A DNA stretch of 64,000 nucleotides. It comes from an uncultured Bacilli bacterium. Lineage in GTDB: Bacteria > Bacillota_I > Bacilli_A > RF39 > UBA660. A program made the translations under genes and the position numbers. The notes under the pieces were generated by a model. It did no database searches. It saw nothing but the letters and a program-made list of their open reading frames with translations, and was not told the DNA's origin. The stretch is taken from assembly GCA_910583745.1 (NCBI GenBank), contig CAJTZC010000008.1, positions 5,785-69,784 of the forward strand, read 5' to 3'. The first letter of the stretch is position 1. Each line of letters starts with the position of its first letter. Positions 12,350 to 28,924 of the stretch are shown in pieces.

Positions 12350-12352
12350 CCA

Positions 12353-14560
12353 TTACACTTCCTCTCTATAAGTATTCATCGCTGAATCTTTGAACAATTT
12401 CTTTGCATATCGATTCGAAATCAACATACTCATCAATATCAAGATGACATAGACGGCGACATAATCTTTTAAGGTAAAATACGTGACCAAATCGTTTATG
12501 TATTCCATGTTGACAACTCCACTCGTCGCGAAGAGGACGAGGGCGAGGAAGACGAGATAAGCGATGTTGATGTCGACGAACAATTCGATGTTTAAAAGCT
12601 GTTTTGAAATCTTTTTCGTCGACCCGAGTATACGAATAGTAGAGAAATAGACATTTCTAGATTTTAATATAATTTTGATGATAAAATAACTGATAAAGAA
12701 CAGGGCGACGGTTGCGATGATAAACACGACGTTTCTGAAAATTCTCAAAATTCCCATCGCCTCTTTGGAAGGATTCGCGAGCGAGTCTTTTATGTAAAAT
12801 GTCTCAAAACCCATTGCTCGTATCTGTTCGACCGTCGAATCTCCAATTTTCAGGTCGTCTATAAAGACACTGACTTGATAATTTCCCTTTAAAAATAGAT
12901 TTTTATAATCGTTTTCGCTGATAAATATCGTATTCGAATCTTGTTCATAATTCGTCAGGCCTGTCACATTTTTAAAATTGTCTTTATTGAATACTTTTCT
13001 CACGGTCAAAGGAATCGAATCTTCATAATACAAATTTTGTACACCGACCTCTATTTTTTTATTTAGGCATTGGTAGTAGCTGCAGTACATGTTAAAATTG
13101 CTCGGTACAAATGCTTTCCCATCGGGAACATTTGCATTGCTCTTGAGGGTAAAGTACATATCGTATCCGTCGTTTTTATACGTTTTATTGTTCATCTTTA
13201 AAGACAACTTGTTGTAATTCACATTCAAAGAAATCTTTATCTTTTCCATGATTGCGTCGGATACATAGATGACAGTATCGTCGAAATTCGTATACTCTTC
13301 CTCTTTTAGTATCTTTATTCCCGAAATTTTTACTTTGCCAAGTGAGTCAATGTCATAGACCTTTTTGAATATTTCTTCACCATAAGTATCGACATAATAC
13401 GAGAATATACCTTCTGTCACGACGACTTCATCGTCATTTTCGGGTTTTCTACCCATGTCGACTCGATCGAGTTCTCTCCAACTTCTAAATTTACCTTGAA
13501 AAAAGATGCTGTCATTATAAACTGAGCCCCATGAATCGAGGAGCAAATCCTCTTTCTCTACCCTTTTGACATTCTCTACATTTTCGAGCGACTTCACTTC
13601 TTCTTCGGTAAAGACGCTCTTATCTTTCTTTGTCAAAATCACCCTCTCTGGGTCTTGTTCACGAAAGTAATCATTGTATCCTTCTAGAGCTTCTTCGTAG
13701 GTCATCTTAGATAAACCTGAATACTCAGAAAATACTAAAAACGTTAAAAAGAAGTAGACGAAGAATAGAAGGACAAATTTCGTCTTGATGTTGAACGAAT
13801 TCCTCATTCCTAGACGTATCTTGTTGAACCAAGTTAAATCTTCATACTTTACCAATTTCGGTTCGACTGGCTCATAGGAATCGATTTTTTTATCTTCGAT
13901 GATATGCCCATCGTTCATCGAAATCTTTCGCGTCGCATACTCCTCGACTTGCTCGTAGTTGTGTGTGACGATGACGACGAGTTTTTCTTTGGATATATCT
14001 TTCAAAAGTTTCATGATGCTTTTGGCACTTTTGACATCCAAATTTCCCGTCGGTTCATCGGCGACGATGACCGGTGTATCTTTTGCAAGAGCTCTCGCGA
14101 TGGCGACTCTCTGCTTTTGTCCTCCTGACAGCTTCGAAGCCTTCGTATTTTTATATTTTGTCAACCCCACTGTCTTGATGACTTCCAAAACTTTTTCTCT
14201 ACATTCTCGTCTCTTATACCCATTTAAAAGCAATACCAACTCTATATTTTGGTAGACAGTATAGCTGTTTACTAGGTTAAAGTTTTGAAATATATTTCCT
14301 ATATATTTGCGGCGATAGTTCTCATAATCGACCTCCGTGTAGTGACTCGTCTCTTCGCCATTGATATACATTTCGCCTTCTTCATAAGAATCCAGCCCCG
14401 AGATGACATTCAACAGTGTCGACTTTCCACTTCCAGATTCGCCTGTGAATACGACGAATTCCCCCATATCGATATCGAGAGAGATTCTCGAAAATCCCGT
14501 CGATATCGTCTTCTTATTATAATAGAATTTCGATACATTCTTTAATTTGATAAAACTCAT
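12353..14560 (-). CDS. Fused ABC transporter ATPase plus FtsX/MacB-type permease (paralogous partner)
   Basis: Walker A GESGSGKST, signature LSGGQKQRVAIARAL, Walker B IVADEPT, and the same topology as the downstream gene. Separated from it by 3 nt. Confidence 0.9.
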   Translation of the reverse strand: MSFIKLKNVSKFYYNKKTISTGFSRISLDIDMGEFVVFTGESGSGKSTLLNVISGLDSYEEGEMYINGEETSHYTEVDYENYRRKYIGNIFQNFNLVNSYTVYQNIELVLLLNGYKRRECREKVLEVIKTVGLTKYKNTKASKLSGGQKQRVAIARALAKDTPVIVADEPTGNLDVKSAKSIMKLLKDISKEKLVVIVTHNYEQVEEYATRKISMNDGHIIEDKKIDSYEPVEPKLVKYEDLTWFNKIRLGMRNSFNIKTKFVLLFFVYFFLTFLVFSEYSGLSKMTYEEALEGYNDYFREQDPERVILTKKDKSVFTEEEVKSLENVENVKRVEKEDLLLDSWGSVYNDSIFFQGKFRSWRELDRVDMGRKPENDDEVVVTEGIFSYYVDTYGEEIFKKVYDIDSLGKVKISGIKILKEEEYTNFDDTVIYVSDAIMEKIKISLNVNYNKLSLKMNNKTYKNDGYDMYFTLKSNANVPDGKAFVPSNFNMYCSYYQCLNKKIEVGVQNLYYEDSIPLTVRKVFNKDNFKNVTGLTNYEQDSNTIFISENDYKNLFLKGNYQVSVFIDDLKIGDSTVEQIRAMGFETFYIKDSLANPSKEAMGILRIFRNVVFIIATVALFFISYFIIKIILKSRNVYFSTIRILGSTKKISKQLLNIELFVDINIAYLVFLALVLFATSGVVNMEYINDLVTYFTLKDYVAVYVILILMSMLISNRYAKKLFKDSAMNTYREEV

Positions 14561-14665
14561 AAAAATTCTCCTTTCCTAAGTATATCTTACAAATTCGTTT
14601 GCATAATCCCATCAAGTCAATTTAACTATACCACGTCTAAAACGCGATTGCAACTCGCAAAAAAG

Positions 14666-14770
14666 TCGTTTTTGTATGACAAAAATTTATTTTTTGCACG
14701 GTTTTTGTGCAAAAATAGCAAATCTCTCGGACAAATGAACATTTTTGCACGGTTTTTGATACAAAAAAAG
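14666..14770. repeat. Palindrome-rich intergenic repeat, copy B
   Basis: TTTTTG-tatga-CAAAAA, TTTTTGCAC-ggttttt-GTGCAAAAA and TTTTTGCACGGTTTTTGATACAAAAA. Homologous to the reverse complement of 7532-7627. Confidence 0.75.
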
Positions 14771-14796
14771 AAATTTCGTACAGAAACTTCTTTTGC

Positions 14797-14898
14797 TCAT
14801 TTTGCCTTGATAATCGTCGTGATAACGATGAGAGCAAACAATCCTATCACTGCGAGTATTGCTAGCACTTCAGACAGCGTCATTCCCTTTTTGTTCAT
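14797..14898 (-). CDS. 33-codon prepilin-like mini-ORF (class III signal peptide plus a single hydrophobic helix)
   Basis: Not in the ORF track. RBS GGGAGAG lies 5 nt before ATG 14898. MNKKG/MTLSEVLAILAVIGLFALIVITTIIKAK has Gly at -1, Glu at +5 and a hydrophobic helix, as in type IV (pseudo)pilin N-termini. TGA stop at 14797-14799, directly abutting repeat copy B. Confidence 0.5.
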   Translation of the reverse strand: MNKKGMTLSEVLAILAVIGLFALIVITTIIKAK

Positions 14899-14916
14899 CT
14901 TGTCTCTCCCTTTTTA

Positions 14917-15636
14917 CTAACAGTGTCCGTCGCAGACCGCGTCTTCTGTCTTTTTAATCATCTCTTTAAAAAGCTTTTCTAAGTCTTCAATCTGTTTTTT
15001 CGATAACGCGTCGAATGCCGTTTGATTTTTTTCTAATTTTACAGGACTCGTCACGGCCTCTTTTACTACGCCATCTTTTACAACGGCGACGAGAGGGACA
15101 TACATTCTTTTTTCTCCCGTTTTGTATTCTTTCTCGCTTCCCTCTTCTTTGACAGTATATTCGTCGAGGTATTCGTCTAAGATGTCTAACAATTTATAGT
15201 ATTCTTCACTGGCATCCTTCGTCTTGACTGCTTTTTTATCTTCGACGACGAACGTGTCTCTCTTCTCTGTCATGTCTACATAAAGAATCTTATCCAATTT
15301 GGATTCTTGTACGACGTCCAAAAGTGTCGGAAGTATTCCCCTGCACCAAGGACAATTCGGAAATCCAAAGTAAATGATACCCGTTCCTTCTTCTAAGAAT
15401 TCGACAGCTTCATTTAAATCGGCATAGTTTACCTTATTGTTTTCGTCCAAGTCTAACGTTTGATAGACACTATCTCCATAGGCCGTCTCGCCGTTTAGGG
15501 CTTCATATTCTCTTTTAAACTTCATCGCATCGGTCTCGACAGAATCTTTTTTATCACTGCACAGATAGATTCCGAATCCAGCTGCGACGACCACGACGAC
15601 GAACAATATAACTATAAGTATTTTCTTTTTGTCCAA
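14917..15636 (-). CDS. Membrane-anchored thioredoxin-fold protein (CPWC active site)
   Basis: TTG start with RBS GGAGGTG inside the end of frr. N-terminal TM helix. GIIYFGFPNCPWCRGILP is a thioredoxin-like CxxC context. The C-terminus ends CDGHC. Confidence 0.7.
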   Translation of the reverse strand: MDKKKILIVILFVVVVVAAGFGIYLCSDKKDSVETDAMKFKREYEALNGETAYGDSVYQTLDLDENNKVNYADLNEAVEFLEEGTGIIYFGFPNCPWCRGILPTLLDVVQESKLDKILYVDMTEKRDTFVVEDKKAVKTKDASEEYYKLLDILDEYLDEYTVKEEGSEKEYKTGEKRMYVPLVAVVKDGVVKEAVTSPVKLEKNQTAFDALSKKQIEDLEKLFKEMIKKTEDAVCDGHC

Positions 15637-16272: not shown

Positions 16273-17472
16273 CTAACCGTTTGCTTGTCTATCGATTGGC
16301 TTCATGACATGAGGTTTTTCATTGTCTTGAACAGAAGCTCTCTCTGAGTCGATTGTAACGCCAGAAGTGGAAACGACTTGACTACGCAATTCTTTCAATT
16401 TCGCTTCTTTTAGGAGTCTTAACTCTTCTTCACTCTCTGCTTTCAAAACAACTGTTTTTTCTCCTATTTGCACTTTTGAACAATAGAGGATTGGAAGTTC
16501 AATCACTTTCTTGCCTTCGACATCGATATAAGAAGAGTAGCCTTTTCCGCAGACAAAAGCGAGCCCATCACTGAATGAATTCGTCCAATCGTATTGACAA
16601 GGAATGACTTGGTTTCCTTCTTTGTCGATGAAACCAAATTTGCCGTTTGCGTACACTCGGCTTCTTCCACAATGAAAGTCCCCAATGTCATGAAAAGGCT
16701 TTCCTCTTAAAAATGCGCGCATATTTCCAAGTTTGTCAATAAAACCTATTATGTTTCCTTTCGCGAGCTCTATGACAGCCATGTCCTCACTAAAATCGGA
16801 GCCTTTGTCAAAAACAGGTGGAATCTGCATGTGAAAGTCGTGGTTCATATAACCGATCTTTCCTTCAAAACTTTCTATTCTAAACATGCCATTGTTACTA
16901 CTGTAAAAATTTTTAAAATTACTCGTCAATGCTGAGTTAAAATTTGTATTTATAATTCTCCAAACATTATCGCTTATCTTTATAATACTGAATCCTTCAC
17001 TAAAAGGTTTTATCCATTGCGAATTGTACGAGATAAATGTTCCGTCTTTATAAAAGAACTTTTCGCCAGTTGCTTTCTCCAAAACTCCAATTCCATCTGC
17101 ATATTTTTCAGCGTTTTGCCATTGATGTGGCTCAACGACAAAATTTCCAGTTTTATTGATATAACCTACATCGGCATAATCCATATTTGCCGCGATGGCT
17201 AAACCGTCTGAAAATGCATCGGCGCGACGGAATTGAGGTTTGATAACTCTTTTTCCTCTTGTATTGATATATCCCCATTTTCCTTTTACTTTTATCGCAG
17301 CCATGCCTTCACTAAAGTCTGTCGCGCTTTCAAATTGACACCGAATAACTTCTTTTCCCGTTTTATCGATATAACCATGAACCCCATCTTGGTTACTTAC
17401 GACTGCCAATCCTTCATGAAAATCGCCAGTACTTTTATATTTACAAATTACAAAATCATTAAAATAAAACAT
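16273..17472 (-). CDS. WG-repeat (KWG-type) containing protein
   Basis: Repeated F.EGLA.V..NGKWGYI(D/N)K.GK.VI units across the whole protein. Confidence 0.8.
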   Translation of the reverse strand: MFYFNDFVICKYKSTGDFHEGLAVVSNQDGVHGYIDKTGKEVIRCQFESATDFSEGMAAIKVKGKWGYINTRGKRVIKPQFRRADAFSDGLAIAANMDYADVGYINKTGNFVVEPHQWQNAEKYADGIGVLEKATGEKFFYKDGTFISYNSQWIKPFSEGFSIIKISDNVWRIINTNFNSALTSNFKNFYSSNNGMFRIESFEGKIGYMNHDFHMQIPPVFDKGSDFSEDMAVIELAKGNIIGFIDKLGNMRAFLRGKPFHDIGDFHCGRSRVYANGKFGFIDKEGNQVIPCQYDWTNSFSDGLAFVCGKGYSSYIDVEGKKVIELPILYCSKVQIGEKTVVLKAESEEELRLLKEAKLKELRSQVVSTSGVTIDSERASVQDNEKPHVMKPIDRQANG

Positions 17473-17582: not shown

Positions 17583-18011
17583 CTAAAGACACTCTACGCA
17601 AGTATCGTTCAAGCATCTTATCGAACAAACACAATCTAGGTTGATCGTAAAGAAACTGTTCGTACTCACATAAGGATATAATCCAGTATCTTCTGTATTA
17701 GGTGCTAATACCCTGAAAGTAGCAGCATTTCCATCCACTTTTTCTATTCTGAATACGCTTGAACACTCTGATGGATTTGAACAATTGACGATATCCTTGC
17801 TAATAGGCATAGAAATTGGAGTTTGGTTGCCCGCACAACAAGTGTATATAGTTATAGGTCTAGTGTTACATACACAACAAGTCGTTCCGCAACCGAGCAC
17901 TGGTCTGTCACATGAATCTAAGCAGCTTTCAGGACTTCCAGCGTTTTGCTGTAAAATCAAGATGACTTCTAATATTTCTCTGATGCCATTACATTCATTA
18001 TTGTTAGACAT
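17583..18011 (-). CDS. CotY/CotZ-family spore coat/exosporium-like cysteine-rich protein
   Basis: ATG 18011 has RBS GGGTGA. CNGIREILEVILILQQN..., NTRPITIY, SSVFRIEKVDGNAATFRVL and TINLDCVCSIRCLND follow the CotY/CotZ pattern as I recall it. Confidence 0.65.
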   Translation of the reverse strand: MSNNNECNGIREILEVILILQQNAGSPESCLDSCDRPVLGCGTTCCVCNTRPITIYTCCAGNQTPISMPISKDIVNCSNPSECSSVFRIEKVDGNAATFRVLAPNTEDTGLYPYVSTNSFFTINLDCVCSIRCLNDTCVECL

Positions 18012-18037
18012 AATATTCACCCTTTCATTATTCATTA

Positions 18038-18151: not shown

Positions 18152-18463
18152 ATGACTTGGGAATACCTGATTATTGCAGTCGTACTTTTAATCGTCGCTT
18201 TGGTGGCTATGAAAGTTACGGGAAAAAACTTCGATGAAGACATGAATAAACTCATAAAGTATTTGGGTGGAAAAGACAACATCGTAGACTGCGAAATGAG
18301 TATGTCGAGATTTAAGGTGACTTTAAAAGATGTCAGTCTCGCCGACAAAGAAGGCATACAAAAACTCGGAGCAAAGGGCATCGTCGAAATCGACAACCAG
18401 CTGAAAATCGTCTTCGACAAAAATGCTCGGACATTAAAAAAATATATCAAAGATATGCGTTGA
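18152..18463 (+). CDS. Membrane-anchored PTS EIIB(Glc)-like domain protein lacking the phospho-accepting Cys
   Basis: RBS AGGTGA. One N-terminal TM helix. YLGGKDNIVDCEMSMSRFKVTLKD aligns with LGGKENI.....C.TRLR..V.D, with Ser at the catalytic Cys position. Confidence 0.6.
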   Translation: MTWEYLIIAVVLLIVALVAMKVTGKNFDEDMNKLIKYLGGKDNIVDCEMSMSRFKVTLKDVSLADKEGIQKLGAKGIVEIDNQLKIVFDKNARTLKKYIKDMR

Positions 18464-18480: not shown

Positions 18481-19779
18481 TTATACAGGTCTTATTACAT
18501 ATGGCTTCGTCGAATCGAGTAAACGGAACAATTCTTCCAAAGCTTTCATGCTTTCTTCTGTGACTTCACCAGAATGGGAAATTGCTTGCAAATAAGCTCT
18601 CGCTAACTTCGTCTTGCCTTCTCGTATAGCGGTCTTCATATTCTCTACGTAAGACGGCATGTCTAAAGAGAAACGTCCATGCTCCAAATCGGCACAAACT
18701 TGGATAAACGCATAGAAAGAAAGGTCTCCTTCGAACATGCAGATATCGATGAGGTCTCTTATGAAACTTTCCCGTTCGAGTGCACCGATTCCCTCTAAAA
18801 ATAGGTGCAACTTCGCCAAAGCATTTTCCCTATGCCCACTCTTCAACATGTTATATACAGAGGCAAGAGTATCCGATACAGCTAAAACTATCTTTTGTCC
18901 GTATACCTCGCCCACTTTGGCCTTCCACTCGATTACCAGACCTCTACTTTTGATGGTATGGACGATTCTCTCGAGAAGGCGGTGTTGTAATTCAATACAA
19001 GTAGACTTCCTCCGTTTTTCGTTGCTTAAAAATATTTCGATTTCATAAAGAGCATCTTCAAAAGCATGTAATCTCACTAAGTCTCTGTAAAACTTTAACC
19101 CAGGAACTTGGTTAATGGGCAGAGCTTTTCCTCTCTCAAGACGGAAGCAATTTTCGACCAAATATAATGTTAAGTGTTCTGCTTCCCCAATTATATATTG
19201 ACGATCCAAGACATGAAAGAAATTGATGATTCCTAACAAATCTCCTCTCTCCAAAAGTCCTAGCATTATCTGTTCGTTTTGCGATGAACACTTATACGCC
19301 TCGACACAAAGCTGTTTTAAAAGTCTTATTTCGATAGTGGTTCTTGTCGCTAATTTTAAAGCTGCATATCCGAGCATGAACTCATTATTGCCTAAAACAA
19401 AAGGAACAGTTAAACCATCTTTCTCTGGTACTCCAGGAAAACTAGAGTTGAGGCAGTTTACGGTCAAAGACTTTGCCATTATCGATAAATCTTCGGGTAA
19501 GTCAATGATATGACTGAGAAGAAAGAGATAGCCATTGTATTCTTTTCTTCTCGTGGTCGTCACCGCATACATCTTTCTAAAATAGATAAGAGAGTTCTCA
19601 AACTGCTCTGATACTATACATACTAAGAACCGACCGAAGTTACCCAGCTCACCATCGGGGTCGAGGGCAAGACAATCTAAAAAGCAGCGATTGGCCAGAT
19701 AAAGCTCTTTGTTTTCGTAATAAGCGATACCTTCTAGGTATTTTTTTTCACATTCATTTTTTATTGTATTTACTGTCAT
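18481..19779 (-). CDS. Hypothetical all-helical protein made of one copy of the ~280-aa module repeated in the upstream gene
   Basis: 432 aa. Carries the TPR-like hairpin, YNGYLFLLSHIIDLPEDL, LERGKALPI and related motifs shared with the four modules of 19783..23604. Starts 3 nt after the upstream stop. Confidence 0.85.
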   Translation of the reverse strand: MTVNTIKNECEKKYLEGIAYYENKELYLANRCFLDCLALDPDGELGNFGRFLVCIVSEQFENSLIYFRKMYAVTTTRRKEYNGYLFLLSHIIDLPEDLSIMAKSLTVNCLNSSFPGVPEKDGLTVPFVLGNNEFMLGYAALKLATRTTIEIRLLKQLCVEAYKCSSQNEQIMLGLLERGDLLGIINFFHVLDRQYIIGEAEHLTLYLVENCFRLERGKALPINQVPGLKFYRDLVRLHAFEDALYEIEIFLSNEKRRKSTCIELQHRLLERIVHTIKSRGLVIEWKAKVGEVYGQKIVLAVSDTLASVYNMLKSGHRENALAKLHLFLEGIGALERESFIRDLIDICMFEGDLSFYAFIQVCADLEHGRFSLDMPSYVENMKTAIREGKTKLARAYLQAISHSGEVTEESMKALEELFRLLDSTKPYVIRPV

Positions 19780-19782
19780 ATG

Positions 19783-22700
19783 TTATTCCCCATCCTTTAT
19801 CGGTTTCATCAGATTTTGATACTCTTTTTTTGAAGAAGAGACGACGTGTCTATAATATTTTCCGATGAGACTTGTGCTTGTACTTATCTCTTCTACTTCT
19901 AACAGGCACTCTTTTGCAGCCTCTTCCTCTCCCTTGGCATAGTATCTTTCTGCAAGAGTGATATAGATTAAATACCTCTCCGTGACGGAGGCACCATATA
20001 TCTTTAAAGCTCCTTCCACGTTTACTCCACTTTGAATAGTAGATAAAATGTCAGGAACAAAACCGGAACCGACCATATCCTCTAAAGTAATCTTTTCTTC
20101 CTGTGTCAGCGACTCATTAGAAATTCCCTTCTTTTTTTCGGTGATGTATGCGATGATATCGTCCAACAAAAGGGACAACAGTTCTGAACCCGAATTGTTC
20201 GTAAGCTGATAATTTCTGTTAAACTTTCTGGCTTTTCTATAATCTTTATTCATGATGGCATAAAAAGTATTTAATGCGTTGCCGCCAGTTTTTCTAGGGA
20301 TTTCTCCGGTTTCATGGATAGAGAGAATATCTTCAACTAGTGATAAAAAAGACTTTTCTAATACGTTTAATGGCCATATTTTAGCAAAACTTTTTAATGT
20401 AGAAGCAGCTGTTTGGTACTCTTTCTTCTGTATTGCAACTTTCAATTCTGTAGAAAATCTGTCGTATACTGTTTGACAAGTTGCACATAACGTATTGATG
20501 AGGTTGAGCTTAGAACTGCTTCCCTCTTTCTCTTTTAAATCCTTCAATATTCCTATACTGTGTATAAAATTTTTCTTTAACGCGGCTGTGTATACTTTTC
20601 CATAGTAGAGACTACTCATGCTGGTTGGATCGAGAGGGATTTTATCGAACCACAAATCGTCTATTTTCTTTTTCATATCTTCCGGCACTTCTGTGATGAA
20701 ATTTAGAAGATAAATATACATCAAGTTGTCAAAATGCTCTTCTTGCGTTTCCTGTTGCATCAACACTCTCAAATATTCGAAAGCTCTACTGTAATTCTTT
20801 AAATCACAATTCTGGGCGAACAGTTCAAAATTGGCTCCTTTGTGTAGAGGGTTCCATTCTAGACATTGGCGAAACATCTCGAACGCCTTGTAGAACTCTC
20901 CAATTTTATATAACTGTTTTCCCTTGGTGTATAATTCGTCCGCATCACTAGTTTTAAAGGCGACTTCTTCGGACGTCGTTTCTCGAACGGATGGTCCAAA
21001 ATTTATCCTCTTGATAGTATCCAAAGCCACATTTATCAGTGTAGTCAATAGATTGTCTGTTCTCAAGTAATTTTTTTGAAAGTCGTTGTTTATTTTTTCC
21101 ACTGCAGAATAATCGCGAAGTTTGACGGCTTCAAAAATCGTCTTAGGAGAACCATCTGTCGCTTCGACGACTTGTCCTGTCTCTTGCATCGTGACAATAT
21201 CTCTTGCCACATAGAGACAAGCTTCCATTGGACGAGTGAGCCCTTGTCTATCTCTTAACGAAGAGACCAAAGTGATAAACTCGGTGAATTTTCCTTCGTC
21301 GACCAACTTTTTCATCTCTGCCTTGGTGGCAGCTTGTATTCGACCTGCTTCGCTCGCTAGGATTAAAATGGAGTTTTCTACTTCTAGAAGACGTCTCGTT
21401 TTCCTTGTGCTATCTAGAAGTTGGTTCCCATAAAAGAATTTCTTATTTACCAGTGCTGTAACGATGTCATACCAAAGACAGGCCACACTCTCCTTCCCAC
21501 GACTTAGAGGGCTCATGTCTTTGAACTCTAAAGTTTTTGCTTTTCTATTCAGTTCATCGGGCAGTATCGTGATGTGATGTAATAAGAACAGATATGTATT
21601 GTATTCATATTCTTCATGTTTATTGGCAAAATAGTTCCATCTGCTGAAGACTTTCGCCGCCGAATCGAAATCTCTATTCATGATATAGTAGGTAAACATT
21701 CTCTTCACGAGAGGCTGGAACGTCGGATTGATTTCTTCCGCTCTTACATAGTAGGAATACGCCTCTTGATATAATCCTTCTTTCCATAGAGCTTCTCCAC
21801 TTTCGAACAATTGTTTTGATTGCTGGCCTATCGTATACTCTCGTCGTGCAATGTCCACTTTTTTAAGAAGACTGATAATGATCGTCCATACATTGCTCTG
21901 TGCGTATACTTCGAGATTGTAACTTTGCAAAGCTCTTTCGTAATCTCTGTCTTTTAGTGCATTCTCGAAAGTAGGACCACTGTTTATAGAGATAGGAAGG
22001 GCCTTTCCTTCTTTGATGAGCAAGATATCGCTTGCAATTTGTAGCATATAGGCTTCGTACTTGTCTAATCTGCGTTTTTGGTCGAGTTCGCTTAAGAAAT
22101 CGACGATGGCCTCGTAGTCTTCTTCTTGAAGAAGGATATATACTTTTCTCTTATCTTTGCCCATTTTCCTGTACACAGCTTTAAATAATGCTAAACGAAC
22201 GATTCGTCTAATGCTTAAAACTTCTTCTGGCGTATCACTCAAGACATTTTTTGCATCTTGAAAGTTTTTGTTTTTACAGAGTCTCGAAATACTCTCTTCT
22301 TCTCCATATTCATAGTTCATCGCGATTTCTTGGTATTGGCTCGGCAAGACGATGAGGTAGTTTAAGAGATGTAAATATTCGGAATATTCTTCTTGCATCG
22401 CTGGAGTAGCATTTTCGTATGCCCTTCTAAAATAGAGAAAAGCTTCGTTAAAACGTTCGTTATTGATCCATTTGCTGAAAATCGCCAAATTGGCTTTGGA
22501 ATGGTTTGGATTGATTTTTAGGCAATTTTGGTAATGTTCATAGGCATCGTAAAGGCTTCTATTCGCAAGGTATTGTTCCCCTTGTAAGAATTCTTTTTCG
22601 TCAGGGGGAACAGTCTCTATATCGTTCAAAGCCATCTTTGTCGACAACTTCATAAAGAGGCTTTCCGATAAGGTGAGTTTCCTCTTCGGATTGGCGTATC

Positions 22701-23604
22701 TCTCCTCCAACATCCATTCGCGTGCTCTATCGTAATCTTTTTGTAGGACAGCCTCGAGAAAACTTTCGCTATTGGTGTCTTTATGCATCTCTATCTTGCC
22801 TGTTGCCGAGAATTGTACCATCTCTTTCGCGAGAGACTTCAGCGCTCTCTCTTCAGTTTCGCATGTCCTGCGATGGTCTATCTCTTCCATAACGACGACG
22901 AGCTTCTCGAACTGCTCGTCTCGAATAAGCTCGGAGATGAGCTCTTTTTCCTCGAAAGAAACTTTTACAACTTCTTTTAGCAACGTTAAAAGTAAAATAT
23001 CGTACTCGTTAAAAGCTCTTTCTTTAGAGATGTCGTAGAGACTTTTTTTCGCATTCGAAAAGTTTCGACTCAAAATATCCCGTCTCACTTGCAAATCGAC
23101 ATTTCCTTCCGCCTCGGCTTCGGAAATATCGCCTAAAAAATCGTCAGCAACCGTTTTCGCTATAGCTACGAACTCTTCCGGTAACTGGGTGAGATACAAT
23201 AAAAGAAACAGAAGAATGTGATAGTCTCTTCTTTTCTCTGTGTCGCCGATGGTTATCATTTTTTTGAGGTAATCGCTCGACTCTTCGTAGTTTCCGCTTG
23301 CCACACATTCTTTAAAAAGGCGAAAAGAGGCCTCGACAGAGCCCAATCTGTGTGCCCTCACGAGACACTTTTTGCCAAAGGCGGTTTCTCCCTTTACTAT
23401 AAGTTCGGATGCGAAATCATAAAACCCATTGACATCGGCTAGGATAAAATTTGGACTGATGAGATTTTCTTTTTTCAGATACCCCAATCTTGCCAAATTC
23501 GTTACTTCGATATAGTTCAACTTTCCTTTTATATTTTTCTTGGTGATGACTCCGTGCTCCCCGATAATGCGGTAAGCACGTTCTAAAATTTCACTCGTGT
23601 TCAT
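19783..23604 (-). CDS. Hypothetical 1273-aa helical repeat protein (four ~280-aa modules with TPR-like elements)
   Basis: Uninterrupted 1273-codon ORF. Internal four-fold repetition is seen in the translation (details in findings). No TM segment, signal peptide or catalytic motif seen. Confidence 0.85.
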   Translation of the reverse strand: MNTSEILERAYRIIGEHGVITKKNIKGKLNYIEVTNLARLGYLKKENLISPNFILADVNGFYDFASELIVKGETAFGKKCLVRAHRLGSVEASFRLFKECVASGNYEESSDYLKKMITIGDTEKRRDYHILLFLLLYLTQLPEEFVAIAKTVADDFLGDISEAEAEGNVDLQVRRDILSRNFSNAKKSLYDISKERAFNEYDILLLTLLKEVVKVSFEEKELISELIRDEQFEKLVVVMEEIDHRRTCETEERALKSLAKEMVQFSATGKIEMHKDTNSESFLEAVLQKDYDRAREWMLEERYANPKRKLTLSESLFMKLSTKMALNDIETVPPDEKEFLQGEQYLANRSLYDAYEHYQNCLKINPNHSKANLAIFSKWINNERFNEAFLYFRRAYENATPAMQEEYSEYLHLLNYLIVLPSQYQEIAMNYEYGEEESISRLCKNKNFQDAKNVLSDTPEEVLSIRRIVRLALFKAVYRKMGKDKRKVYILLQEEDYEAIVDFLSELDQKRRLDKYEAYMLQIASDILLIKEGKALPISINSGPTFENALKDRDYERALQSYNLEVYAQSNVWTIIISLLKKVDIARREYTIGQQSKQLFESGEALWKEGLYQEAYSYYVRAEEINPTFQPLVKRMFTYYIMNRDFDSAAKVFSRWNYFANKHEEYEYNTYLFLLHHITILPDELNRKAKTLEFKDMSPLSRGKESVACLWYDIVTALVNKKFFYGNQLLDSTRKTRRLLEVENSILILASEAGRIQAATKAEMKKLVDEGKFTEFITLVSSLRDRQGLTRPMEACLYVARDIVTMQETGQVVEATDGSPKTIFEAVKLRDYSAVEKINNDFQKNYLRTDNLLTTLINVALDTIKRINFGPSVRETTSEEVAFKTSDADELYTKGKQLYKIGEFYKAFEMFRQCLEWNPLHKGANFELFAQNCDLKNYSRAFEYLRVLMQQETQEEHFDNLMYIYLLNFITEVPEDMKKKIDDLWFDKIPLDPTSMSSLYYGKVYTAALKKNFIHSIGILKDLKEKEGSSSKLNLINTLCATCQTVYDRFSTELKVAIQKKEYQTAASTLKSFAKIWPLNVLEKSFLSLVEDILSIHETGEIPRKTGGNALNTFYAIMNKDYRKARKFNRNYQLTNNSGSELLSLLLDDIIAYITEKKKGISNESLTQEEKITLEDMVGSGFVPDILSTIQSGVNVEGALKIYGASVTERYLIYITLAERYYAKGEEEAAKECLLEVEEISTSTSLIGKYYRHVVSSSKKEYQNLMKPIKDGE

Positions 23605-23625: not shown

Positions 23626-26145
23626 TTATTTAAGCTTTTCTAGCTCTTCTTCTTCCTCTTTGAGTTTTGCTCTCTCTGCCTCGACAATCGATTGAGGCGC
23701 TTTGCTCGTGTAGCCTTCGTTCGACAACAATTTGCGTCTTCTCTCGATAGAACTCTCCAACTCGGCGATGCGTTTTTTCAACGTCTCCGCTTCGTTCGAT
23801 TCATCCTTATCGTAGTAAACTTTTATGCTGTAGTTTTTGAAAATGACGTCGTACGAAGCATTATATTCGTGCGTATAGACTTCATTTCCACCTAGACGTA
23901 ACATGTTTTGTATGATGCGATAGTCTGCCTCTTTCATATATTCGACTCTGAAATCTTTTCCGACCTTATTTTCGAGTTTGTACGTCCTAAACAGTTTGAT
24001 AAACTCGATGATGTCGTCCACTTCTGCCGTCTCAAAATCATACTTCTCCTCGTATTCTGGATAACGGGAAATCATAATCGATTCGGCATCTTTAAACGGC
24101 AACATGCTGTAAATTTCTTCGCTGACATAAGGCATAAATGGACTGATGAGTTTCAAAATAGAACTCAAAACTTTATAGAGAGTCGACTTTGTAGAGGTTT
24201 CACTCGCACTGAACTTCGACATCTCGATGTAGTTGTCACAGAAAGCTTCCCAGATGAAACTGTATATCACTGCTCCTGCATTATTAAATTCGTACTTATC
24301 CAAGTAGCGTCTCGCGTCTTTGATGGTCTTGTTCAGTTTAGAAAGTACCCATTCGTCTTCCTGTTTTAAATTTTCTAGACTGTACGCGTCTTCTTTCAAG
24401 TCCTCGATGTTCATGAGGACGAAGCGAGAGGCGTTCCAAAGTTTATTGATGAAGTTCCAAGTGCTCGCGAGTTTATCCTCGTCGTACTTTAAGTCCATAC
24501 CTCCACTTACTTCTGTAACGAGATAGTAGCGCAAGGCATCGGCGCCATATTTTTCGATGACGTCCATCGGGTCGACTCCATTGCCGAGACTCTTGCTCAT
24601 CTTTCTTCCCTGTTTATCCCTTATCAATCCGTGTATAACACAGTCTTTAAACGGTCTTTGCCCTGTGAAGTGCAACCCTTGGAAAGTCATTCGGTTGACC
24701 CAAAAAGGAATGATATCGTAACCTGTGACGAGACAATCGTTCGGATAGTATCTCTTCAACAGTTCGTCGTCCATAGGCCAATTCAGCGTTGAGAATGGCC
24801 AAAGTGCACTCGAGAACCACGTATCCAAGACATCGGCGTCTTGTTCCCAACCTTCGCCTTCTGGGGCTTCCATACCGACGTAGACCTCTTCTCCTTTATA
24901 CCAAGCAGGAATCCTGTGTCCCCACCACAGCTGACGAGAAATGCACCAGTCATAAGTGATTTCCATCCAATGGTTCATGATTTTTTCGAATCGAGAAGGT
25001 ACGAAATTGACCTTCGTATCGCTGTTCTTCTGGTTTTCCAAAACGGCATCGGCGAGAGGTCTCATCTTTACAAACCACTGTTTAGATAAGTATGGCTCAA
25101 TCATGACGTCCGTTCTCTCTGAATGTCCTACGTTGTGTGTTATCTCATCGATGTTTAAAAGCAACTCTTCTTTTTTAAGTTGTTCTACCACTTTTTCGCG
25201 ACAAGAGAATCTGTCCATTCCGGCATATTCTCCACACAATTCGTTCATCGTCGCATCGGGGTTCATGACGACGACACGCTCTAAATCGTGGCGCATGCCG
25301 ACTTCGAAATCGTTCGGATCGTGTGCAGGGGTTATCTTGACGATTCCCGTTCCAAACTCCATATCGGCGTGTTCGTCTCCTATGATAGGAATTTTTTTGC
25401 CGACGATAGGCAGAATGACTTTTTTCCCTATCAGATGCTTATATCTCTCGTCTTCTGGATTGACTGCGACAGCCGTATCTCCGAATAACGTCTCCGGTCT
25501 CGTCGTTGCCACTTCTAAAAATTCCTCGCTGTCTTCGATATAATACTTGATGTGATAGAAAGCTCCCGTGACTTCTTTATAGATGACCTCTTCATTAGAA
25601 AGAGCTGTCTTTGCCTCAGGGTCCCAGTTTATAATTCTCTCTCCTCGATAGATGAGCCCTTCGTTATATAACTTTACAAACACTTCTCTAACGGCTTTGG
25701 AGAGTCCTTCGTCCAACGTAAAACGCTCTTTTGTATAATCTAGCGACAACCCGAGTGTTGCCCATTGATTGTGGATATTCTCTGCATACTCGTCCTTCCA
25801 AGCCCAAGCACATTCTAGCCACTCTTCACGACGCATTCCCCTCGGGTCGCGGCCTTCATCTTTCAATTTTCTATCGACTTTTGCCTGAGTCGCGATTCCT
25901 GCATGGTCCATCCCTGGCAACCAAAGCGCATCAAAGCCACACATCCTTTTATAGCGGATAATGACATCTTGAATCGAAGTATCCCAAGCATGCCCGAGAT
26001 GCAATTTTCCTGTGACGTTTGGAGGTGGAATGACGATAGTAAACGGTTTTTTACTCAAATCTCCCGCACAGAAGTATCCTTTCTCCTTCCAAGTTTTGTA
26101 TTTGTTTTCTTCTACCTTTTTGTGATCATATTTTGTCTCTAACAT
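23626..26145 (-). CDS. valS: Valine--tRNA ligase
   Basis: HIGH motif PPPNVTGKLHLGHA, KMSKS motif RKMSKSLGN, C-terminal coiled coil. 839 aa. Confidence 0.97.
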   Translation of the reverse strand: MLETKYDHKKVEENKYKTWKEKGYFCAGDLSKKPFTIVIPPPNVTGKLHLGHAWDTSIQDVIIRYKRMCGFDALWLPGMDHAGIATQAKVDRKLKDEGRDPRGMRREEWLECAWAWKDEYAENIHNQWATLGLSLDYTKERFTLDEGLSKAVREVFVKLYNEGLIYRGERIINWDPEAKTALSNEEVIYKEVTGAFYHIKYYIEDSEEFLEVATTRPETLFGDTAVAVNPEDERYKHLIGKKVILPIVGKKIPIIGDEHADMEFGTGIVKITPAHDPNDFEVGMRHDLERVVVMNPDATMNELCGEYAGMDRFSCREKVVEQLKKEELLLNIDEITHNVGHSERTDVMIEPYLSKQWFVKMRPLADAVLENQKNSDTKVNFVPSRFEKIMNHWMEITYDWCISRQLWWGHRIPAWYKGEEVYVGMEAPEGEGWEQDADVLDTWFSSALWPFSTLNWPMDDELLKRYYPNDCLVTGYDIIPFWVNRMTFQGLHFTGQRPFKDCVIHGLIRDKQGRKMSKSLGNGVDPMDVIEKYGADALRYYLVTEVSGGMDLKYDEDKLASTWNFINKLWNASRFVLMNIEDLKEDAYSLENLKQEDEWVLSKLNKTIKDARRYLDKYEFNNAGAVIYSFIWEAFCDNYIEMSKFSASETSTKSTLYKVLSSILKLISPFMPYVSEEIYSMLPFKDAESIMISRYPEYEEKYDFETAEVDDIIEFIKLFRTYKLENKVGKDFRVEYMKEADYRIIQNMLRLGGNEVYTHEYNASYDVIFKNYSIKVYYDKDESNEAETLKKRIAELESSIERRRKLLSNEGYTSKAPQSIVEAERAKLKEEEEELEKLK

Positions 26146-26864
26146 TGTTTCTCAATCCTTTCATTTAAGTATTTTATTGCATGTTCGTAAATATTTTTGA
26201 ATGTATCTTTGTATTCCACTCGTTCATAGAGCACTTTCAATCTCTCTTTTGCAACTTCGAGTGATATCGTGTAGTTCAAGTCGAAGACGAAGGCAAAGTC
26301 TGCCGCGATTTTTTCGTTATTCGTCGTCGCAAACTTTCTATCGACGCATCGACAATTCATGATATCTTCCATGACGCGTTCACAGATGTCACTGTCGTCC
26401 CCTTTTAGATTGAATCGACCCAAAGTTCCAAAATTATAGAGAATATCCAATTTATCTACGTCGCGTATGAGCTTTGCCATTTTCATAGACAATGCATCTT
26501 CGTTCTTTTCTATCTTTAACTTGTTGTGCTGCCGTATGGCGAATTCGATAGCAGGATAGTGTTCTCTTTTTATGCCAAACTTCTCGATGAGTTCCTCTTT
26601 AAACAGTAAATCCGCGCCGTGTTCAGCATGGTCGAAGCTCTTATAATCATTAAACGTCTTCGCCTGCTCTGCTTGGTCGAATCTTCCCGTATCGTGTAAC
26701 AATCCAATCTCTGTCGCCAACTGCACTTCGTCGTCACTGAAGCCGAGCTCGACTGCTGCGTCGTGCATATTGGTTTTCACTCGCATCGTATGAGCTATTT
26801 TAGAACGAACATTTTCGTTTGTTTTATCGTACTCATCTGTAAACCTTAAGAATTTTTCTTCCAT
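26139..26864 (-). CDS. HD-domain phosphohydrolase
   Basis: H...LLHDTGRF plus downstream His/Asp residues typical of the HD superfamily. Overlaps the valS start by 7 nt and lies directly behind the T-box leader. Confidence 0.7.
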   Translation of the reverse strand: MEEKFLRFTDEYDKTNENVRSKIAHTMRVKTNMHDAAVELGFSDDEVQLATEIGLLHDTGRFDQAEQAKTFNDYKSFDHAEHGADLLFKEELIEKFGIKREHYPAIEFAIRQHNKLKIEKNEDALSMKMAKLIRDVDKLDILYNFGTLGRFNLKGDDSDICERVMEDIMNCRCVDRKFATTNNEKIAADFAFVFDLNYTISLEVAKERLKVLYERVEYKDTFKNIYEHAIKYLNERIEKQC

Positions 26865-26885: not shown

Positions 26886-27091
26886 AAAAAAAGCTATAAC
26901 GCAGAGGGCGAATATCATTCGCTGTACCACCTCTACTTTATAACTTAGCAGTTAATCTCCTTGATGCTTAACGCGCATTCACGATTTTTCTCAACTCTCA
27001 ACCTTCAAAAACGTATCACACTGGCTTACACCAACCACCAGTTCTCTTTGCTGATGTCATTTTTTACTCCTAGAGTCTCACCGAAAACTTG
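26886..27091 (-). promoter_or_regulatory. T-box riboswitch leader (probably Val-specific) controlling the HD-valS operon
   Basis: Minus-strand RNA contains AGAGA, a distal-loop-like GGUGUAA, a specifier region GAAGGUUGA (GUU followed by a purine), the T-box AGAGGUGGUACAGCG (26920-26934) and a U7 run. UGGU would pair with an ACCA tRNA end, which fits a Val discriminator A73. Confidence 0.75.
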
Positions 27092-27097
27092 ATACTG

Positions 27098-27126
27098 ATT
27101 ATACTATATTTAATAAGATTTATCAA
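27098..27126 (-). promoter_or_regulatory. Sigma-A promoter for the T-box/HD/valS transcript
   Basis: Minus strand: TTGATA-17 nt-TATAAT. Confidence 0.6.
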
Positions 27127-27164: not shown

Positions 27165-28748
27165 CTACAGATGATATGGATTATCAATTGTGCCGTTTCC
27201 TTGGAGTTTATCTAGGTATTCAGCTTTCAGATTGATTACTGGAGCGACCGCACCGCTGTCGTCAACATTGTAGTGGATCATCTGGCCAGAGCTATTGACA
27301 AGGAACACAGTAGCAAGGCCGCCAGAATGCACGCTATTAGGCGAGAACGACCAGTACCAGCTTTCTTTTTTTAAGTAATAACTACTATTTGTTGTTCCAT
27401 ACTTTCCGCTTCCTGCGGCTACGATTTCATCTGCTGTGATTAACCCTACTGGATACGTCGATTTCCCGTTTCCTCCATTTTCTGCTTCCACTGTGAATTT
27501 ATCGTTTTCCTGTGGACACGTGAAACGCGGTTGTGTTACTGTTGTCTGCCATGGCCCTCCTACTCTTGCCGTTGCTCCGTATGCTGTTACGTTATTTCCA
27601 TATCCTAACCCTGTATCACTACTCCATCCCGTAGCACTCTTTCCTGGGGTACTTCTATCATTGCAGAATATACTGTCTGCTACATAATTTCCATATCCTG
27701 TGTCTACTATATTTGTTTTATACCATTCATCTACTTTTGTCTTTATTGGTGAGTCTGTTTCATTTCTTTGCGCTTGCTCTTTGCTCGTACTTGCACTTCC
27801 ATTTGCTCCTCCGAACATCCACCCTACATATTTGGCATCATTCTTACTTGTATTCCATGTTTGAGCAGATAAAACAAATCCTCTTGTATAAGTATTATCT
27901 CTTGATATCCCCACTCCATCATACTGTATTCGCACTGTTCCATTACCGTTGAACCGGATGATTCTCCACCACATATCTTGCCCACTCGCGTTCTTTCCAA
28001 ATTTTATGTAGTTATTTGGTGCCGTTCCTCTATAGTAGTAGCTCGTTCCATAATCATCTTCCATGCTGTACAGTCCGTTTGCCGTTTCATCTGTCGTCGC
28101 TGGATTTGCGAAGTTCGTTGGGTTATTAGTATTCTTCTTTATATTTAAACTTGCAAGCGCATCTTCTGCAGTCCATTTTTTGGTACTTTCATCTAATGTA
28201 AATTTTGTTATAAAGTTTGCATTTAAATCTGCCGTTTGGTCTATATCCGGTAAATCTTCAAATGTGATTCTTACTCTATAGGTATACGTGTGTCCTGCTG
28301 GAACAAGTAAGTGGTCTGCCATAAGCTGTGTTGAAGCTGTCTCACTTCTCGGCACATTTGCACTTACTGTCTCTACTTGCTTCCATTCTGCTCCTATGTC
28401 ATCACTTTTCTCTTCTAAAGTATACGTTAGAGATTCTGCTAAGTATGTATTTATCAAATTATCCCAACTTATCTTTGCATACGCATCTCGCGTTCCCGTA
28501 TTTTCGATGACCAATTCTTTCTCGGTACTGTCTCCAAAGTTCCATGTACCTTCTATATTCTCTACCGTTTCATCATTATCTCTAAATGTTAGAGCTAAAT
28601 CGCCACTTCTTATCGTAATCTTCTCTTGCTCGTTTGTTCCCACTTGAGATACAAAGTAAGCATAAGTCAGCGATGTCGTCAAGGCAACTATCGATACACA
28701 TAGCACTATCAATGATATTACATTCTTTTTGTTTCTTTTTTCTTCCAT
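27165..28748 (-). CDS. Secreted protein with SipW/TasA-like N-terminal signal and beta-sandwich-like module (paralog 1)
   Basis: ATG 28748 has RBS AAAGGGA. MEEKRNKKNVISLIVLCVSIVALTTSLTYAYFVSQ resembles the SipW-cognate (T-x-AYF) signal class. About 65-80 percent identical in its N-terminal and C-terminal blocks to 49091..50650. The C-terminus ends GNGTIDNPYHL. Confidence 0.8.
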   Translation of the reverse strand: MEEKRNKKNVISLIVLCVSIVALTTSLTYAYFVSQVGTNEQEKITIRSGDLALTFRDNDETVENIEGTWNFGDSTEKELVIENTGTRDAYAKISWDNLINTYLAESLTYTLEEKSDDIGAEWKQVETVSANVPRSETASTQLMADHLLVPAGHTYTYRVRITFEDLPDIDQTADLNANFITKFTLDESTKKWTAEDALASLNIKKNTNNPTNFANPATTDETANGLYSMEDDYGTSYYYRGTAPNNYIKFGKNASGQDMWWRIIRFNGNGTVRIQYDGVGISRDNTYTRGFVLSAQTWNTSKNDAKYVGWMFGGANGSASTSKEQAQRNETDSPIKTKVDEWYKTNIVDTGYGNYVADSIFCNDRSTPGKSATGWSSDTGLGYGNNVTAYGATARVGGPWQTTVTQPRFTCPQENDKFTVEAENGGNGKSTYPVGLITADEIVAAGSGKYGTTNSSYYLKKESWYWSFSPNSVHSGGLATVFLVNSSGQMIHYNVDDSGAVAPVINLKAEYLDKLQGNGTIDNPYHL

Positions 28749-28924
28749 ACTCTTGTTCCCTTTCTTTCTACTCAGTCTACCATACATTTTTTGAAAATCG
28801 TGTCGATTTGTAATCATCTAATTTGAACTCCTGTACTTATTTTATGAGTATTATCTATGTTATAAGTATACAATTGAAATGGTTTAAAAGCGTACTTAGT
28901 CTACTTAAAAAGTAAAGTATTTAC

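Follow-up and report, generated by a model that had tools for sequence, protein, structure and literature searches.

Two translationally coupled genes behind valS carry five copies of a TPR-like module and belong to an undescribed protein family, apparently of gut Bacilli

Here we describe two adjacent genes, A and B, found in a 64-kb stretch of DNA from an uncultured Bacilli bacterium (this whole stretch is referred to as the window). The large protein A and the smaller protein B hold five copies of one module, four in A and one in B, and this five-copy repeat is real. Comparisons of domain content indicate, with good support, that the two proteins are rearranged, derived members of an undescribed family from uncultured, apparently spore-forming gut Bacilli.

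Five module copies in two adjacent genes

Both open reading frames (ORFs) lie where a first-pass annotation of the window had put them (Table 1), and the ATG of B follows the TAA of A by 3 nt (TAA-CAT-ATG), as had also been reported. An AGGAGG ribosome-binding site stands 7 nt 5' of the ATG of A. The motifs quoted in that annotation were all present; motif A, for example, occurs at residues 128, 407, 668 and 960 of A (spacing 279, 261, and 292) and at residue 81 of B. In BLASTP comparisons between modules, each of the ten pairs gave a significant match, with E from 3e-6 to 1e-21 and 20-33% identity over alignments of mostly 200-250 aa, and neither the N-terminal 59 aa nor the two C-terminal tails gave a match in the same comparisons (E >= 0.09). 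As an independent test, we took 64 unrelated proteins with a single module, no window sequence among them, and built from these a hidden Markov model (HMM) of the module. With this model, A showed four full-length copies (E 4e-34 to 3e-54) and B a single one (E 4e-26), and the internal periodicity claimed from the translations was thereby confirmed. The earlier description of a ~280-aa module holds for the number of copies and needs correction in its outline: the copies are about 260-290 aa long and bipartite, with parts that are repeated separately in other proteins. Furthermore, A is a genuine coding gene under purifying selection, because the ratio of nonsynonymous to synonymous substitution rates (dN/dS), computed against a 97%-identical strain, is 0.28.

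Predicted fold of the module

The first reading of A and B as modular helical proteins, with a tetratricopeptide repeat (TPR)-like hairpin opening each module, agrees with the profile matches. In Pfam, A matched TPR_19 (PF14559, 44.3 bits; cut-off 25) and TPR_2 (PF07719, 34.5 bits; cut-off 27), and a profile of the five modules matched consensus-TPR structures in the PDB through positions 3-66 only, with E values down to 3e-70. By these matches, the first ~66 residues of the module are two canonical TPRs. For the other two thirds, from motif A onward, a PDB profile search yielded noise and one de novo designed helical repeat (E 2e-4) but no significant natural match. No model for the part of the module beyond the TPRs was found in Pfam, NCBIfam, PHROGs or PADLOC, and scans of A and B against the last two gave no match. 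The absence of transmembrane segments and catalytic domains from both proteins, noted before, was confirmed here. A weak HamA match in B (E 0.005; 17 bits, cut-off 25) and a RIC1 match in A, both from Pfam, were dismissed as noise.

AlphaFold models of B and of residues 1-600 of A (predicted local distance difference test, pLDDT, 84 and 89, respectively) consist of helical hairpins throughout, with an N-terminal winged helix in A. The predicted module has ~14 helices, including a 29-residue helix in its middle, with the 'G-K-x-L-P' segment of motif B as a loop. In the alignment made by MAFFT for the A model, module 2 was paired with module 4 of the homologues. The fold of the single module tolerates this error, but how the modules pack against each other in the model (predicted template modelling score 0.59) is not to be relied on.

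Foldseek searches of the PDB with both models returned only long TPR scaffolds (P58IPK, Tom71, OGT, Ctr9, Naa15 and APC/C subunits), with probabilities up to 1.0 and yet global TM-scores of ~0.2. A and B thus show both marks of the TPR / alpha-solenoid class (Pfam clan CL0020), TPR profile matches and predicted models of stacked hairpins. Because two canonical TPRs stand at its start and Foldseek returned TPR scaffolds only, the module is predicted to be a TPR-like solenoid super-repeat and not a new fold. Long TPR scaffolds such as Ctr9 of Paf1C, Naa15 of NatA, Tom70/71, Cdc16/23/27 of APC/C and P58IPK share with it the fold class of stacked antiparallel hairpins, with the first two hairpins of each A/B module matching TPR profiles. 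They differ in that the repeat of A and B is a ~270-aa super-repeat, about two thirds of it without a significant natural sequence match in PDB, and in that the eukaryotic scaffolds have no winged-helix head. Judged from the models, A would have ~56 module helices (~28 hairpins), which would put it in the size class of the eukaryotic Ctr9, Naa15 and APC/C subunits.

A family of single-module relatives

Word-indexed homology searches with A or B found only 97%-identical strain variants, and the family surfaced with an exhaustive HMMER profile search. Searched in this way, the five-module profile reached E<1e-30 for 87 clusters (50% identity). Among the 150 best clusters, more than 130 have a whole module at residues ~58-325 of proteins of 350-860 aa. 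The view that the pair has no recognisable family therefore stands for curated libraries and falls for exhaustive profile searching, which reveals a large uncharacterised family. An alignment of 64 family proteins was colinear over the full length. A standard member (~800-860 aa) consists of a ~57-aa AbiEi-like winged helix, one module, a helical domain that we call X, an R3H domain, TPRs and a C-terminal domain. Pfam recognised R3H (PF01424) in 20 of the 64 proteins and AbiEi_4 (PF13338) in the heads of 29, and PADLOC models of AbiEi matched the heads of P0021 and P0030 (best E 8e-8; P and L numbers are our handles for proteins and loci).

The family sequences all derive from metagenomes or metagenome-assembled genomes (MAGs), among them human, rabbit and further gut samples; where labelled, they are assigned to uncultured Bacilli, 'Tenericutes', Erysipelotrichaceae or similar. 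'R3H domain-containing nucleic acid-binding protein' is the only name attached to any of them, in one MAG. The neighbourhoods examined include the GerA operon, SpoIIP, YqfC/YqfD, YlbD and coat genes, and the hosts are taken to be spore formers because of the GerA, SpoIIP, YqfC/YqfD and coat genes among them. One standard member, P0021 in L004, sits between the sporulation genes yqfC (YabP family) and yqfD within the conserved block rpsU-yqeY-yqfC-yqfD-ybeY-dgkA-cdd-era-recO. A tblastn search with P0021 found nothing in 50,697 phage and 72,556 plasmid records, and megablast of the A/B locus against phages gave no match. By these searches, the family is not evidently mobile. A scan of GTDB genomes with A alone returned no match either, one with an alignment of eight family sequences was successful, and a literature search combining AbiEi, TPR, R3H and sporulation found nothing relevant.

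Against the HMMs of the family domains, A matched with four modules and the C-terminal domain and lacked X, R3H and the C-terminal TPR block that accompany the single module of standard members; B matched with one module and X and nothing else. Neither PF01424 nor the family R3H HMM detected R3H in A or B. The homology thus extends over the head (via P0004), the module, X (in B) and the C-terminal domain (in A), and the host group is apparently the same. It is well supported that, in the lineage of the window, the module was quadruplicated and X, R3H and the TPRs dropped to give A, with B keeping a module and X and no head. Reduced layouts were found elsewhere in the family as well: a tandem pair with the layout head, module and C-terminal domain in L027, headless proteins of module and X in L030 and L033, tandem pairs of a headed 578-aa and a headless 524-aa protein in L051, L053 and L054, and headed tandem pairs in L027 and L042. 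Pairing of headed and headless proteins is thus not unique to A and B; quadruplication of the module is. Expansion by internal duplication took a second, independent route in P0005/P0006 (L009), where one full module precedes four tandem half-modules, each a copy of the second half (profile positions ~160-270), and X comes after them.

The winged-helix head

The proposal that the first ~60 aa of A form a winged-helix-like domain was borne out by the AlphaFold model and by the AbiEi_4 matches of the homologous heads. The modelled head (pLDDT 80-92) comprises helices at residues 3-17, 22-25 and 31-39 and strands at 43-46 and 52-55, a topology of three helices and a two-stranded wing. Each of the heads of A, P0003 and P0004 could be aligned colinearly to that of the family. 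The family head HMM gave E 6e-6 for the orthologous P0004 head and E 0.18 for that of A. In the family signature LTTKxL...RGxY, the wing motif RGxY is replaced by SPNF in A. A PDB profile search with the head returned spurious matches to DotG repeats and only weak winged-helix matches (CooA 0.03, AbiGI 2.7 and AbiEi 4.2).

A small N-terminal DNA-binding domain followed by a TPR-type ligand-binding domain is also the layout of the Firmicute RNPP proteins (Rap, NprR, PlcR and PrgX), although the XRE-type helix-turn-helix (HTH) head is absent in Rap; the RNPP peptide-binding domain has 5-9 TPRs. The first-pass annotation had drawn this analogy. Developed into a full reading, A would sense peptides, with a DNA-binding head, peptide-binding TPR modules and B as co-receptor, and the N-terminal portion of the family proteins with its single module (~330 aa) is close to PlcR in size. 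Nothing specific speaks for the analogy. The predicted head is of the AbiEi-type winged-helix kind and not an XRE-type HTH, and no Rap, NprR, PlcR or PrgX structure occurred in the top 50 Foldseek matches of either model, among the 24 PDB matches of the family profile or among the 60 best listed for the module profile. A is far larger and has extra domains, and standard members carry a further 450-500 aa (X, R3H, TPR and C-terminal domain) foreign to RNPP proteins. A is flanked by valS and B, and the ORF list showed no evident pro-peptide gene, although no dedicated search for small ORFs or signal peptides was run. We consider a peptide sensor of this kind highly improbable.

Three four-module lineages and their rate of change

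Four-module proteins formed three clusters only (A/P0001, P0003 and P0004), and an alignment of the three found no match in a scan of JGI metagenomes. All three genes sit directly downstream of valS, and the family C-terminal-domain HMM matches P0003 and P0004 in addition to A. In a neighbour-joining tree, modules were grouped by their position in the protein (first with first and so on), and the module of B fell weakly beside the clade of second modules. The quadruplication is therefore older than the split of the three lineages. P0003 is followed by a B-like gene after an identical 3-nt gap (30% identity over the 125 aa available). With three independent A-type lineages, the co-occurrence of the large and the small gene, which the first-pass annotation had proposed to check, is seen in two of the three and fails in the P0004 lineage.

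ValS of the window is 81% identical to that of L038 and 87% identical to that of L007, the P0004 locus, with which the CotZ-like neighbour shares 93% identity. A has 32% identity to P0004 and 40% to P0003. Between strains, dN/dS was 0.057 for valS; within A it was highest in module 1 (0.55) among the modules and was also high in the head. A evolves about five times faster than ValS. At this rate, the 13% divergence of ValS translates into an expected divergence of ~65% (~34% identity), so the 32% identity of A and P0004 requires neither positive selection nor horizontal replacement; both were considered and set aside as unnecessary. The notion of an old duplication held under constraint is right in that the quadruplication predates the split, and has to be qualified in that the lineages are close and the protein is fast. 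For the same reason, the deep divergence among the module copies reflects speed as much as age.

The contrast between A and its flanks is what might suggest a defence sensor, in which the modules would recognise fast-changing foreign proteins (cf. STAND/Avs TPR sensors) and the AbiEi-like head would provide a link to abortive infection. That B is present or absent among close lineages and that the heads of relatives match AbiEi models fits such a role. However, the rate difference already accounts for the low identity and the dN/dS of A indicates relaxed purifying selection, the locus occupies a fixed housekeeping position on the chromosome and not an island, and homologues were lacking from the phage and plasmid records. 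Effector, NTPase and toxin domains were not found, and beyond the head PADLOC recognised nothing. With the AbiEi antitoxin of the type IV toxin-antitoxin system AbiE, only the ~55-aa head is held in common, by sequence only in the relatives and in predicted topology also in A. A and B have neither the C-terminal domain of AbiEi nor a neighbouring AbiEii (DUF1814) nucleotidyltransferase; their neighbours are valS, an HD-domain gene and an EIIB-like gene, and PADLOC assigned neither A nor B to the system. We regard a defence function as very unlikely.

The same rates could instead describe a degenerating or merely structural paralogue, that is, weakly constrained filler such as a generic chaperone-like TPR platform with no link to DNA and no specific partnership with B. 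Loss of RGxY, failure of the head against its HMM, the high dN/dS of module 1 and the head, the dispensability of B in the P0004 lineage and the restriction of the four-module architecture to three clusters all favour it. Yet the 3.8-kb ORF has remained unbroken in three lineages whose proteins differ by 60-68%, the four modules and the C-terminal domain are orthologous position by position, dN/dS is well below 1, and a strong ribosome-binding site and the coupled downstream gene are conserved. This explanation appears rather unlikely.

The valS locus and its T-box leader

Upstream of A, the window contains a T-box leader, an HD-domain gene and valS, in this order (Table 1). The default Rfam scan skipped the T-box, as its score is just under the cut-off. 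The same order of T-box, HD gene, valS and four-module gene precedes and includes P0004 in L007, so that the leader was found in two of the three four-module loci (the window and L007). The first gene after the T-box is the HD-domain gene and not the synthetase, and the order around the HD gene is the same in L001, L003 and L007. The specifier region GAAG-GUU-GA, judged by eye, is compatible with a valine codon. The sigma-70-type promoter-like site ahead of the leader is a consensus match only, and the scan that found it showed no excess of such sites over shuffled sequence. From the stop of valS to the ATG of A there are 21 nt; all junctions from the HD gene through valS and A to B are gaps of <=21 nt or overlaps, and no terminator-like site was found between the genes. 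A and B thus seem to share a transcript with valS, from a promoter under T-box control. This apparent co-transcription argues for a vegetative or starvation-linked role rather than one strictly specific to sporulation.

It therefore also counts against A and B being scaffolds of spore-coat or forespore-engulfment assembly that recruit several spore proteins through their modules, since control by the T-box of a housekeeping gene is not of the sporulation type. For such scaffolds speak the GerA operon, SpoIIP, YqfD and YlbD in the contexts examined, the place of P0021 between yqfC and yqfD, a CotZ-like gene ~450 nt downstream of B whose position is kept in L007, and the likeness of the sigma factors associated with relatives (see below) to the mother-cell factors SigE and SigK. 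On the other hand, a convergent gene separates the CotZ-like gene from B, the CotZ-like gene is a transcription unit of its own, the contexts of the family are otherwise variable and mostly housekeeping, and no coat-protein or membrane-anchoring features were found in A or B. Taken together, a sporulation scaffold is unlikely.

Sigma factors and a second conserved protein beside relatives

Clustering of the neighbours of 28 family loci revealed a protein of ~334 aa (UP). In 13 of the loci its gene directly precedes the family gene, mostly overlapping the start of the latter by 4 nt (ATGA); UP was seen again in L040, L041 and L050. UP combines a TPR-like N-terminal half with a strongly conserved alpha/beta C-terminal half, in which the His and Cys residues H223, H227, C238, H263 and C290 (L013 numbering) are invariant. 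It had TPR-type matches only in Pfam and matched TPR proteins only in a PDB profile search. The C-terminal half could be a metal-binding or catalytic domain. Mean pairwise identity was 59% for UP and 50% for the family protein, which indicates similar divergence rates; standard members are thus little faster than their own UP, whereas A is much faster than the genes that flank it.

A sigma-70-family gene lies within ~3 kb, and often adjacent, in about 9 of 47 loci, a partly redundant set gathered through pattern scans. The order is sigma-UP-family in L016, L033 and L040/41 and family-sigma in L011 and L014. Four of these sigma proteins were scanned against NCBIfam and gave SigE/SigK as best matches at about 200 bits, below the cut-offs. 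Three of the four have C-terminal extensions of 250-650 aa, and the extensions of L014, L016 and L033 contain sequence that, judged by eye, resembles extra region-4-type HTH repeats. Such an extended architecture is unusual for sporulation-type sigma factors. ECF41- and ECF42-type sigma factors have regulatory C-terminal extensions, which in ECF42 contain TPRs. The extension in L033 contains the X domain of the family (HMM E 1.4e-39), and the X domain of B matched it directly by BLASTP (E 2e-11). This fusion is the strongest hint that X, which B carries, may work with a sigma factor, and the presence of extended sigma factors beside family genes, one of them with X, likewise suggests that X may act on or with such a factor. 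A and B themselves have no sigma-factor regions.

A tentative role for A and B

Taken together, these observations are compatible with a multivalent A/B scaffold that acts on transcription and is linked to a T-box, a reading that we offer tentatively and to which we would give somewhat less than an even chance. By analogy with TPR scaffolds, the modules would be protein-binding surfaces and A a multivalent protein-binding platform, which its basic winged-helix head may still tether to nucleic acid; DNA binding by the head is conceivable. B would be made in fixed proportion to A through translational coupling and would either join the platform or compete for the same ligands, contributing its X domain. 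The coupling and the recurring pairs of headed and headless proteins suggest that the two act together. The likeliest target would be a component of transcription, because operons of relatives contain UP and SigE/SigK-like sigma factors and X is fused to one of the latter; the nucleic-acid-binding head and the R3H domain of the family point the same way. The level of A and B would rise when tRNA-Val is uncharged, so that their expression may track tRNA-Val charging. In its most specific form, the family would be an unrecognised class of regulators of SigE/SigK-like sigma factors, in which X binds sigma and the modules bind a signal or partner, and the four-module form under the valS T-box couples alternative transcription to tRNA-Val charging; we find this version distinctly doubtful.

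Several observations weigh against the scaffold reading. The window contains no UP gene (best E 0.31 with the UP HMM) and no sigma-factor gene; valS, in the place of UP, lies directly upstream of A. The association with sigma and UP is therefore borrowed from the relatives, where it is itself confined to a minority of loci, and a sigma-factor connection in the organism of the window is suggested by analogy. The head of A, with no RGxY and no significant match to the head HMM, may have lost DNA binding, and A and B lack R3H, the only recognisable nucleic-acid-binding module of the family besides the head. B is not obligatory, as the P0004 lineage (L007) has no B gene. A dN/dS of 0.28 (0.55 in module 1) is weak constraint, and co-transcription with valS is read from gene spacing only. 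In addition, the hosts had no cultured representative in any source searched.

The fold class of A and B and the layout of a small DNA-binding head with a TPR platform are known. In the libraries and literature searched, there was no description of the ~270-aa super-repeat, of X, of the family itself or of its four-fold expansion behind valS. What looked like an orphan pair becomes part of a defined, searchable family, whose module and X domain are both without a model in the four libraries named above. As it is known here only from metagenomes and MAGs, the family is a blind spot for experiment, and the sigma neighbourhood and the X fusion provide a concrete hypothesis for hypothetical proteins from gut metagenomes and MAGs. 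A is a clear natural case of a bacterial TPR scaffold enlarged by duplication of a whole super-repeat, and its locus is a case of a T-box leader and valS followed by a non-translation gene. If the sigma link is true, the pair would tie the sensing of amino-acid starvation to an alternative transcription programme; if it is false, A is an ordinary fast-evolving TPR protein.

Table 1 Positions of the genes, domains and sites discussed, in the window and in loci of relatives
Feature	Sequence	Position	Strand	Description
Gene A	window	19783..23604	-	1273 aa, 147.7 kDa; degenerate winged-helix head, four modules and family C-terminal domain
Winged-helix head	window	23431..23604	-	A residues 1-58; basic, isoelectric point 9.45; apparently a diverged AbiEi_4-like domain
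Module 1	window	22609..23427	-	A residues 60-332; most diverged copy, without canonical TPR signature
Module 2	window	21823..22608	-	A residues 333-594; copy nearest the module of B (BLASTP E 1e-21)
Module 3	window	20953..21822	-	A residues 595-884; best canonical TPR pair (TPR_19 at 606-666, 44 bits)
Module 4	window	20155..20952	-	A residues 885-1150; nearest the single-module family (E 3e-54; 26% mean identity)
Family-shared C-terminal domain	window	19813..20052	-	A residues 1185-1264; family C-terminal HMM, E 2.6e-9
Gene B	window	18481..19779	-	432 aa; headless paralogue with one module and X domain, translationally coupled to A
Module 5	window	18994..19779	-	B residues 1-262; helical hairpins, pLDDT mostly >90
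X domain	window	18508..18876	-	B residues 302-424; helical; X HMM E 6e-22
valS (valine-tRNA ligase)	window	23626..26145	-	NF004349, 1100 bits, above cut-off
HD-domain gene	window	26139..26864	-	PF01966, E 6e-7; 7-nt overlap with valS start; first gene of the apparent operon
T-box leader	window	26901..27090	-	RF00230, E 1e-19, 88.5 bits (gathering cut-off 93); match over the full length, with the T-box sequence AGAGGUGGUACAGCG
Sigma-70-type promoter-like site	window	27098..27126	-	TTGATA-17-TATAAT; 11/12 consensus matches, best in a 10-kb scan
550-aa ORF	window	27165-28817	-
EIIB-like ORF	window	18152-18463	+
CotZ-like gene	window	17583-18035	-
Terminator-like hairpin	window	17554-17529
WG-repeat gene	window	16273-17472	-
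ABC cluster	window	9926-15636	-
UP	L013	5000-6004		example; about 13 further loci beyond the three listed
UP	L016	5000-6004		example
UP	L035	5036-6004		example
SigE/SigK-like sigma factor	L014	3758-5155
SigE/SigK-like sigma factor	L016	3212-4741
SigE/SigK-like sigma factor	L033	2379-4934
SigE/SigK-like sigma factor	L040	2208-3740
P0021	L004	7698-11681		between yqfC and yqfD
P0005/P0006	L009	8001-10952		one module, four half-module copies, X

Other genes around the pair

Convergent with B, 18 nt from its stop, is a lone ORF of 103 aa with a phosphotransferase system EIIB domain (PF00367, E 6e-9). It has the same position in L007 and L008, and no other phosphotransferase gene was seen among the annotated neighbours. 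The CotZ-like spore-coat protein has 150 aa (PF10612). Its gene is followed by a terminator-like hairpin and by a gene for a 399-aa protein with five WG_beta_rep repeats. Directly upstream of the T-box promoter lies an ORF of 550 aa with no family match and a weak resemblance to DUF1616 only (E 0.002). Farther downstream of the pair, two large ATP-binding cassette (ABC) proteins adjoin a PedC/BrcD-like thiol-disulfide protein (239 aa). The first has 735 aa and an N-terminal ABC ATPase domain, and the second, of 807 aa, is a fusion of an ATPase with an FtsX-type permease whose best match is bacteriocin-export-like. By these matches, the cluster resembles a putative system for bacteriocin export or immunity.

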